From: a virus
Lineage: Duplodnaviria > Heunggongvirae > Uroviricota > Caudoviricetes
IMG/VR virus record: IMGVR_UViG_2778261347_000004
Direction: 5' to 3' (one strand)
DNA length: 6,803 bases
The notes under the pieces are model-generated. The model did not search any database. It saw only the letters and a program-made list of their open reading frames with translations, and was not told where the DNA came from. Positions 5,391 to 6,803 of the stretch are shown here, piece after piece. The number at the start of each line of letters is the position of its first letter. Within the stretch, counting starts at the first letter, position 1. Both the position numbers and the translations under genes were made by a program.

Positions 5391-5663
5391 ATGACAGTAG
5401 TCATTACATATCTGGCTGACGATAACGCCAGAAATCGCCGCAGAGCACGCAGACAGGCTCAACGTGAACAGGCAATGCAAGAACAGCGATTGGCACGAAA
5501 AATTGCGCTAAAGCTCTCTGGTTGCGTCAGAGCAGATAAAGCAGCATCACTCGGAAGCCTTCGCTGCAAGAAGGCAGATGAATGCAGTGGAAGTATTTGC
5601 CTGCCAAACGTAGCCATTTACGCGGCAGGCTACCGGAAATCAAAACAACTGACGGCGAGGTAA
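5391..5663 (+). CDS. N: N-like transcription antitermination protein with N-terminal arginine-rich motif, 90 aa
   Basis: First gene after pL/nutL; GGAGG Shine-Dalgarno; arginine-rich motif NARNRRRARRQAQREQ resembles lambda N (QTRRRERRAEKQAQWK); C-terminal tail ...YAAGYRKSKQLTAR resembles P22 gene 24 product as recalled. Confidence 0.85.
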   Translation: MTVVITYLADDNARNRRRARRQAQREQAMQEQRLARKIALKLSGCVRADKAASLGSLRCKKADECSGSICLPNVAIYAAGYRKSKQLTAR

Positions 5664-5665
5664 TT

Positions 5666-6028
5666 ATGGGTCAGGAAGAAAAATATGAGCTTAAAAAGCT
5701 CATTGGAGAAGACGCCATAGAAGAAATTGCAGCATTAACAACAGCTATAAAGAATATTAGGTATGCGCTAAATACGCTTATCTCCTCATGCGACAAAAAT
5801 AGCAGGGAATTTTTGATACTTGGCGCAGCTCTAGGAATAGTTGATGCGGCAACGCTTCACCTAATTACTCATGACGATATTCTTATTGAGCCGTATGAAA
5901 CATTACTGCTTGTCAGGCAAAAAATGGCTGATGCCGCAGCAAATGGAGACCTTCAACTTTACATCGACTTAAGGAAAGTATTAAGGCGAATGGTCAAAAC
6001 TGAAGGAGATATCCCCCTGACAAAGTAA
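5666..6028 (+). CDS. Hypothetical protein, 120 aa from ATG 5666, second gene of the pL operon
   Basis: ORF-track ORF 5582..6028 overlaps N by 82 nt; the internal ATG 5666 has GAGG 5 nt upstream and starts 2 nt after the N stop codon; predicted soluble, mostly helical; no recognisable motif. Confidence 0.55.
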   Translation: MGQEEKYELKKLIGEDAIEEIAALTTAIKNIRYALNTLISSCDKNSREFLILGAALGIVDAATLHLITHDDILIEPYETLLLVRQKMADAAANGDLQLYIDLRKVLRRMVKTEGDIPLTK

Positions 6029-6058
6029 GGGGGTGAAGAGGCCATTTCAGGAATAAAA

Positions 6059-6553
6059 TTAATAATTTGTCAGCGGCGGTACATATACAGGCTTAGGGTC
6101 TGGCGCTCTATACATCCGGTATTCATTCTTACAGCGAGGACATGAATGCACAAAGAACCCATTAGATTTTATAGTAACCGTGCTTGGTTGAAGTATCGAT
6201 ATTTTATGTTCGCCGAAGCAATGTGCACAAAGGTTATGCTGCTGAATAGAAGGATCGGAATGACTCTTAGGTCGATACACGACAGAACCACCTTCAGTTG
6301 TATGAAGTTCATAATTCTCAGCTTGCACAACAAACATCTTGATTTTTCTATTTTCATCTCGAAGCTTCATTGCGATCTCCTTCTCGGCCTGATAAAGGCC
6401 AGAGAGCTCCGCATTAAGCATCTGTAAGTCAGTTATTCTTTGGTGTAGATCACCAATAGCTTTAGCGATAACAGCATCGTCTCTGGTTTCTTTTATTGTC
6501 TTCAGCAGATCATAAGCCTGTTTCGCGGCAGTTATACCAGATAACACATCCAT
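6059..6553 (-). CDS. Hypothetical protein, 164 aa, N-terminal coiled-coil-like region plus C-terminal CxxC-X25-CxxC zinc ribbon; oriented against the pL operon
   Basis: ORF track; ATG 6553 with AAGAGAG upstream (minus); C-terminal CAHC...CPRC pair; convergent with the gene at 5666..6028 with only 30 nt between stops. Confidence 0.65.
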   Translation of the reverse strand: MDVLSGITAAKQAYDLLKTIKETRDDAVIAKAIGDLHQRITDLQMLNAELSGLYQAEKEIAMKLRDENRKIKMFVVQAENYELHTTEGGSVVYRPKSHSDPSIQQHNLCAHCFGEHKISILQPSTVTIKSNGFFVHSCPRCKNEYRMYRAPDPKPVYVPPLTNY

Positions 6554-6569
6554 ATAAATTACTCTCTTA

Positions 6570-6614
6570 CTGTAGGGGTAAGAGGATTTTACTATTTTTC
6601 TCGCTGTAGGGGTA
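6570..6614. repeat. Two exact copies of 11-bp direct repeat CTGTAGGGGTA (6570-6580 and 6604-6614) upstream of the zinc-ribbon gene
   Basis: Exact 11-mer twice, 34 bp apart, between the minus-strand ATG 6553 and the divergent plus-strand gene at 6754; they flank a candidate minus-strand -10 (TAAAAT, plus 6585-6590). Confidence 0.6.
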
Positions 6615-6753
6615 CACGAGAACCACCGAGCCTGATGTGGTTAAAAGACAGGCACAATCTTTACTACCGCAAGCCACGCAGTGAAATGGGTGTGACTTGT
6701 GTTGGTCGCCAGAAAATGAAATTAGACAGCAAACCACTTATTTGAGGTGAGAT

Positions 6754-6803
6754 ATGACAAAATCATGGAGCGTACCTTTTCCTGAATCAGAAACTGAACA
6801 TGA
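6754..6803 (+). CDS. Hypothetical protein, 5' end only (continues beyond window end); N-terminus MTKSWSVPFPESETEH
   Basis: ATG 6754 preceded by GAGGTGA Shine-Dalgarno; frame open to window edge. Confidence 0.4.
   Translation, partial: MTKSWSVPFPESETEH

Follow-up and report, generated by a model that had tools for sequence, protein, structure and literature searches.

The window analysed here, by which we mean the whole stretch of 6,803 nucleotides, holds the early-left (pL) operon and the immunity and early region of a lambdoid prophage of the Stx1a/HK620 type, and is 100% identical to a Stx1a-converting phage. Since cI and the gene of an N-type antiterminator lie on the plus strand (Table 1), this strand corresponds to the pL direction. 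The segment 6000-6654 shares 99.7% identity with HK620 and HK630 and 99.5% with HK629, and the gene order cI, N, hkaQ and hkaP, the last on the minus strand, agrees with the maps of HK620, P22 and lambda. The location of hkaP on the minus strand inside the pL operon, downstream of N and antisense to pL, is that of a PsieB-type cassette. Homology to HK620 stops at 6654 and homology to lambda and P22 near 6672, and from 6662-6693 on the window matches the N-L0079 junction of Stx/933W-type phages, which places mosaic joints within 6654-6693. In the record of HK620 a tL1 terminator is annotated at the equivalent of 6440-6463 on the plus (pL) strand, within hkaP, which is antisense to that strand; if this terminator is real, the sas-like region downstream of it would be transcribed solely under N antitermination.

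The product of hkaP belongs to PHROG 1244, a family of unknown function, and is labelled "putative superinfection exclusion protein" in the HK620 record. HkaP gave no Pfam match, whereas the SieB proteins of P22 and lambda match PF14163; the window thus carries a PsieB-type cassette with a different cargo and not a sieB promoter in the strict sense. At Met62 of HkaP, a strong internal Shine-Dalgarno sequence with an ATG (GAGAAGGAGATCGCAATG, 6368-6385, minus strand) recalls the Esc start within P22 sieB. Only three of 13 HkaP-like genes have this arrangement, so that an Esc-like internal start is not conserved among them.

Table 1. Features of the window and of the cassette upstream of hkaP. 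Coordinates count from the first nucleotide of the window.
Feature	Coordinates	Strand	Remarks
DnaB-like helicase, O-like protein, cII, cro		-	
cI	3883-4620	+	
N-type antiterminator	5391-5663	+	PF25694
hkaP	6059-6553	-	164 aa, two CxxC motifs; cargo in the slot held by sieB in lambda and P22
Region equivalent to the P22 sas antisense RNA (127 nt)	6550-6670	+	segment 6597-6670 differs by 1 nt
Predicted 5' leader of hkaP	6554-6579	-	ACCCCUACAGUAAGAGAGUAAUUUAU, 26 nt, predicted unstructured
Hairpin SL1	6563-6585	+	9-bp hairpin around the proximal copy, GUAGG loop, followed by AUUUUACUAUUUUU
Proximal 11-mer	6570-6580	+	CTGTAGGGGTA; complement ACCCCUACAG, predicted to make up nt 1-10 of the hkaP mRNA; in the plus-strand hairpin SL1, the loop and part of the stem
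Predicted transcription start	6579	-	A of ACCCCUACAG, seventh base after the -10 hexamer; placed by homology to P22
-10 hexamer of the PsieB-type promoter	6586-6591	-	TAAAAT; P22 equivalent TAAACT
Hairpin SL2	6598-6622	+	UUCUCG(C)UGUA-GGGG-UACACGAGAA; carries the distal copy
Distal 11-mer	6604-6614	+	CTGTAGGGGTA; overlies the -35 position of the promoter on the minus strand; within SL2 it makes up the 5' inner stem, the GGGG loop and two bases at the start of the 3' arm
Hexamer at the -35 position	6609-6614	-	TACCCC; 17-nt spacer to the -10 hexamer; inside the distal copy
3' element	6622-6653	+	ACCACCGAGCCTGATGTGGTTAAAAGACAGGC, near-invariant 32 nt, ends the cassette

The two exact 11-mers reported in the preliminary description are present on the plus strand, 34 nt apart from start to start, and the similarity between them extends over 16 nt (6565-6580 versus 6599-6614), of which 14 are identical. 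By our own arithmetic about 0.08 exact direct repeats of 11 nt lying within 50 nt would be expected per 6.8 kb. With up to two mismatches the window contains seven matches to the motif, compared with 0.86 ± 1.0 in dinucleotide-shuffled sequences, and none of 200 shuffles reached seven. The repeat is conserved at homologous loci, the distal copy being identical in lambda, P22 and HK620. The proximal copy ACCCCTACAG forms an invariant island, with flanks on either side that have diverged. Furthermore, 15 of 20 unique upstream segments of class A, the repeat class of the window (see below), retain at least nine of the 11 bases of the proximal copy, in loci that had been retrieved without reference to the repeats. 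A further sequence, ACCCCTACA, lies inside cI (4492-4500, plus strand); it is identical to nucleotides 1-9 predicted for the hkaP mRNA and is the complement of the core of the repeat. As a functional site it was rejected, being confined among the related loci to one cI type (10 loci with identical context), and it probably occurs there by chance.

A sensitive DNA search aligned window 6559-6660 at 85-86% identity with the DNA upstream of sieB in lambda (34390-34491) and P22, and the identity runs on to 6672 (about 86% over 6559-6672). In P22 the sieB promoter TGTACCCCTACAGCGAGAAATCGGATAAACT and an RNA start at the A of ACCCCTACAG are annotated (BK000583), and the -35, -10 and start positions were placed in the window by transferring this annotation through the alignment. 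The transfer supports the initial placement of the distal copy in the -35 region and of the proximal copy over the start and leader, the latter copy beginning at the RNA start. The candidate -10 hexamer TAAAAT proposed at the outset exists as well, one base away from its first coordinates, ATTTTA of the plus strand occupying 6586-6591 and not 6585-6590. The -35-position hexamer is poor, matching TTGACA at two of six positions; the P22 promoter feature spans the equivalent hexamer. By homology, the hkaP mRNA would begin with the complement of the proximal copy as its nucleotides +1 to +10. In class A, conservation of the proximal copy sets in exactly at the mapped +1 of P22, and position -1 varies between C, A and T. 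A scan for consensus promoters detected neither the minus-strand promoter nor any plus-strand promoter in the gap. The gap had also been taken as a promoter region shared with the divergent gene that starts at 6754; this is unlikely, as the scan gave no plus-strand promoter in the gap and that gene lies on the strand of the pL operon and directly follows N in 933W-type phages.

On the opposite strand, the pL-sense sequence over the leader and start codon of hkaP is homologous to the sas antisense RNA of P22, with a 5' third that is cargo-specific. RNA-seq of P22 recorded a 127-nt RNA in infected cells only, the sequence of which holds both copies (PMC13397905, Table 2, 2026), and according to a review of 2025 (PMC12197685) the cis-antisense RNA sas, given there as 105 nt, switches translation within sieB. 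A discrete sas RNA of about 105-127 nt during infection is known only for P22 (PMC13397905, PMC12197685); the homology suggests that a sas-like plus-strand RNA may also arise from the window in the present phage. Inspection of P22, lambda and the window by eye did not bring up a convincing promoter from which the antisense RNA could start, and in view of this result processing from pL transcripts is assumed. A scan of the whole window against Rfam 15 (E <= 1) returned zero matches, neither to C4 nor to another family. A literature text search on the motif, hkaP, tL1 and sieB-linked small RNAs yielded nothing useful. Both copies lie in plus-strand hairpins, SL1 and SL2 (Table 1), and the predicted fold of P22 sas has the same arrangement as the hairpins of the window. 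A LexA box (CTGT-N8-ACAG), CsrA GGA sites, a small open reading frame in the conserved element and a hammerhead core were considered and rejected on reading the sequences.

The 3' element adjoins SL2 and is present in over 300 viral contigs and in several enterobacterial genera, all retrieved by anchoring on this element, where the neighbouring hairpins and cargo genes differ strongly. It occurs in two versions, ending in AAAAGACAGGC and in AAAAGCAGGC, and may fold as an H-type pseudoknot (ACCAC/GUGGU plus GCCUG/CAGGC); some of its variants retain G.U pairs on the plus strand and others break pairs. Its minus strand resembles a boxA (UGUCUUUUAACCA).

The comparative survey collected loci that match GTGGTTAAAAGACAGGC, a 17-nt stretch outside the repeats (window 6637-6653), the variant GTGGTTAAAAGCAGGC of this anchor or one of two additional patterns, every retrieval being anchored on the 3' element. 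This yielded about 350 related loci in lambdoid prophages of E. coli, Salmonella, Edwardsiella, Rahnella, Trabulsiella, Izhakiella, Atlantibacter and Hafnia, with a shared layout of the 32-nt element, a hairpin directly to its left and then a minus-strand gene. The cassette, which is never annotated, was counted in 1033 of 5426 complete E. coli genomes. Many of the matches in non-enteric assemblies represent lambda contamination: loci L190-L216, from a scan of genome contigs that mostly gave such matches, carry the exact lambda sequence in low-coverage contigs of unrelated bacteria (Nocardioides, Paenibacillus, Shewanella, Bradyrhizobium and others), some of these contigs being about 48.5 kb long, and represent contamination of public genomes by phage lambda. 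Across the surveyed loci (L001-L358), the slot equivalent to window 6059-6553 holds at least 37 unrelated protein families on the minus strand, among them P22-type and lambda-type SieB (PF14163), HkaP-like proteins, zinc ribbons, small membrane proteins and a ClpP-like protein, and looks like a variable cargo hotspot for prophage-expressed genes.

Pairing in SL2 was assessed by folding each sequence separately and by a chimera test, in place of counting pairs, because a MAFFT alignment lost the register of the stem across classes. The 67 unique sequences contain 40 distinct outer helices (e.g. TTCTCG/CGAGAA, TGCTGG/CCAGCA, TACTGG/CCAGTA, TCTTGG/CCAAGA and TCCTGC/GCAGGA), and pairing is kept in all of them. 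The mean free energy was -9.0 kcal/mol for native hairpins compared with -5.7 kcal/mol for chimeras of unrelated halves, SL2 was more stable on the plus than on the minus strand in 55 of the 67 sequences, and class C includes intermediates with C-G, U.G and U-A at one position of the stem.

More than half of the unique cassettes (40 of 71 and 62 of 109 in two tallies) contain a second copy of the 5' half and loop of the hairpin 32-35 nt to its left; in shuffled sequence the chance of such a copy is 4% at 9/11 identity and 0.1% at 10/11. The repeat motifs number at least six (CTGTAGGGGT, TTGACTGTGGAA, TTGTTGGGGA, TTGCATTGGGG, TTGTGGGGG and ACTATTGGGGA), the two copies of each lying 32-35 nt from one another, with further versions of class motifs such as TTATGTTGGGG and TCGTTGGGGA; the classes differ, yet within a locus both copies carry the same version. 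Motif positions 5 and 10 pair with each other in SL2 only, as A-U in class A and U-A in class C, and nevertheless the proximal copy shows the same change at these positions. The spacers between the copies (GAGAAATCGGATAAACT, AAGGATTCGGTTAATCT and GGAAATGGGTAGACT) appear homologous across classes by eye, and on this reading we infer that the duplication is older than the divergence of the classes and that the copies changed in concert. In about 50 of 56 two-copy cassettes the proximal copy is preceded, at a distance of 4-8 nt, by a -10-like hexamer (TAAACT, TAAAAT, TATAAT, TATATT, TAGACT or TAATAT), so the geometry with the distal copy at -35 and the proximal copy at +1 is general. The repeat class is independent of the cargo, HkaP-like genes occurring with classes A, C and F and the class A repeat occurring with HkaP-like genes and with both P22-type and lambda-type SieB; it is likewise independent of the repressor, the N type and the right-hand neighbour. 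Some cassettes are without the proximal copy or keep AGGGGGT alone, and many consist of a single hairpin with no repeat. A separate group of loci with the 3' element version ending in AAAAGCAGGC (L253, L265, L274, L305, L306, L308, L320 and L357) has a different upstream architecture, in which CTAAGTT(T/A)AGTT is repeated about 33 nt apart and a G-rich hairpin is absent.

We consider it very probable that the repeats are part of the lambdoid PsieB/sas cassette, with hkaP in place of sieB under its control. For their function we favour RNA pairing over a cognate regulator that binds DNA. The mRNA 5' end is predicted to be unpaired and is complementary to both copies in the plus-strand RNA. Counting two G.U pairs, 15 of its first 16 bases can pair with 6599-6614, a stretch that extends into the AAGAGAG Shine-Dalgarno region. 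Between the first 14 nt of the mRNA and the distal copy of the same class, the predicted duplex has -20 to -23 kcal/mol, a value reached by none of 1000 shuffles, while distal copies of other classes give -6 to -14 kcal/mol. As a mechanism, pL transcripts antiterminated by N would yield the plus-strand RNA in lytic growth or superinfection, and the unstructured 5' end of the mRNA (+1 to +10/16, abutting the Shine-Dalgarno sequence) would pair with either copy. The proximal copy would serve as the cis-antisense partner of this 5' end and SL2 with the distal copy as a second, structured entry site, and the pairing would block translation or destabilise the cargo mRNA. Such a pairing requirement is proposed to keep the two copies identical while the motif diversifies between classes. 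In P22, sas is reportedly made by superinfecting phage, which halts SieB synthesis, and not by the prophage (work attributed to Ranade and Poteete, 1993); this fits a plus-strand RNA that arises only when N carries transcription past tL1.

Several observations count against pairing. The distal copy, for which the pairing role was deduced from complementarity, is mostly base-paired in SL2, with GGGG alone in the loop, and a tetraloop is a poor kissing partner. Complementarity of the cis-antisense RNA is already complete by virtue of the proximal copy, which makes a second site dispensable in principle, and the cassettes that lack the proximal copy or have a single hairpin also count against this explanation. 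Mismatches between the copies are biased weakly, and not significantly, towards wobble-compatible transitions (about 10 versus about 5 incompatible ones, by hand count). Taken whole, the explanation of the repeats as two conserved cores of the PsieB/sas cassette that act by RNA pairing is the best available, and we give it somewhat less than an even chance of being right.

The duplication itself may be all that the copies have in common. They could descend, as a relic, from a promoter/hairpin unit that was duplicated in tandem long ago, each copy being conserved for separate reasons, the distal one as -35 region and SL2 stem and the proximal one as start site and leader, with no functional link between them. 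The similarity of the units in P22 and lambda does exceed the 11-mer (GAGAAATCGGAT versus GAGAATCGCCGAT or AGAAATGGAT), there are single-hairpin cassettes in which a -10-like sequence overlaps the hairpin arm, and loss of the proximal copy is tolerated in some cassettes. However, the class motifs differ and still the two copies change alike, even at positions 5 and 10, which are structurally relevant in SL2 only, and the flanks of the proximal copy diverge freely. We therefore regard a mere relic as unlikely.

Less probable still is the reading closest to the preliminary description, which saw the repeats as a pair of binding sites for a factor it left unnamed: a DNA-binding regulator from phage or host would occupy the -35 and +1 sites and control the hkaP promoter as repressor or activator. 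Direct repeats over these two positions are typical of operators, the poor -35 hexamer could mean that an activator is needed, and a concerted change of both copies would also suit a co-evolving regulator. The survey gave this reading no support, as there is no protein whose variation follows that of the repeat: lambda, P22, HK620 and the Stx1a phage share the class A repeat, whereas repressor, N, cargo and right-hand neighbour all differ among class A phages. A single host factor would have to contend with at least six motif classes, and class B cassettes (e.g. L137) are flanked by the window's own pL-operon gene. Moreover, the conservation of the proximal copy ends exactly at the RNA start, the distal copy sits in a hairpin with compensatory changes, and both copies fall within hairpins of the plus-strand RNA, the strand that matches a known antisense RNA.

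A shared RNA-binding protein (Hfq, ProQ or a phage protein) could instead recognise both plus-strand stem-loops, with the loop as recognition motif, since two hairpins of the same motif lie on one RNA with an A/U-rich spacer between them; we hold this to be quite improbable, given that the motif varies widely between classes with no linked protein, that the structural context of the two copies differs and that class A contains no GGA of the kind which CsrA prefers. That the hairpins are two intrinsic terminators stopping pL transcription after the antisense-oriented gene is the most improbable proposal: SL1 with the U-rich AUUUUACUAUUUUU scores terminator-like on the plus strand, but SL2 is without a U tract on both strands, the SL1 equivalents of lambda and P22 are without a good one, and terminators do not require identical sequences, which leaves the concerted change unexplained. 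For SL1 itself a terminator role is possible, and it would likewise not explain the identical sequences.

The repeats are thus not an orphan operator and mark a regulatory cassette first described in P22 in 1993, which is widespread and has been reused for many cargo genes that probably affect phage exclusion. The annotation of HK620-type and Stx1a prophages can be corrected accordingly, with places for a promoter and start site of hkaP and for a sas-like RNA. If the copies are an RNA recognition determinant, the cassette would provide a simple finder of exclusion or defence genes expressed by prophages and a testable model of how a phage spares itself from its own exclusion gene, and would explain which incoming phages bypass which resident prophages. 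A wider interpretation, which we offer tentatively and consider rather doubtful as yet, is that of a portable, antisense-controlled cargo slot, where the near-invariant 32-nt element and a hairpin flank a minus-strand promoter that serves any of at least 37 unrelated small proteins, and in which the duplicated motif of 9-14 nt acts as a class-specific lock and key that joins the 5' end of the cargo mRNA to the pL-derived antisense RNA. The six or more classes would then be traces of an arms race of resident exclusion genes with incoming phages, which use their own antisense RNA to silence these genes. The portable cassette, its many cargo genes, the co-varying repeats and the invariant 32-nt element make the system worth pursuing.

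The closest known system is PsieB/sas of P22, reportedly described by Ranade and Poteete in 1993 in papers said to be in J Bacteriol 175:4712 and Genes Dev 7:1498. The window shares with it the position in the pL operon, the minus-strand orientation, aligned -10, -35 and start positions, the presence of both copies in sas and about 85% identity overall, with a difference of 1 nt from the distal copy to the 3' end. It differs in its cargo, hkaP being unrelated to SieB (no PF14163), and in the leader, which is unrelated after +10. The translational switch from SieB to Esc is a feature of P22; the internal Shine-Dalgarno sequence and ATG at Met62 of HkaP are present in only three of 13 relatives. 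The region upstream of lambda sieB (git), at 34378-34491, also holds the cassette with both copies and the same 3' element, and differs by a T at position 11 of the proximal copy, by the -10 hexamer TAAACT and by its lambda-type SieB cargo; the lambda records annotate no tL1, promoter or antisense RNA in this region. The hkaP regions of HK620, HK630 and HK629 are nearly the same as that of the window (99.5-99.7% identity over 6000-6654), the repeat region being unannotated there and the right flank differing after the mosaic joint at 6654. More distant parallels exist among regulatory RNAs. The c4 RNA of P1/P7 and the CI RNA of P4 are small phage RNAs that recognise their targets through short, repeated stretches of complementarity. 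The cassette is unlike these in having no Rfam match and in the control of an exclusion gene rather than of an antirepressor or of immunity; it resembles them in that short repeats on one transcript match a partner RNA with a specificity that differs between related phages. In IS10, RNA-IN and RNA-OUT begin to pair at the 5' end of the former and the loop of the latter. The window has no sequence relation to IS10 and is not a transposon, its loop motif is duplicated and its antisense RNA probably derives from a long operon transcript, but as in IS10 the mRNA starts within sequence that forms a hairpin loop in the RNA of the opposite strand, so that a free 5' end faces the loop.
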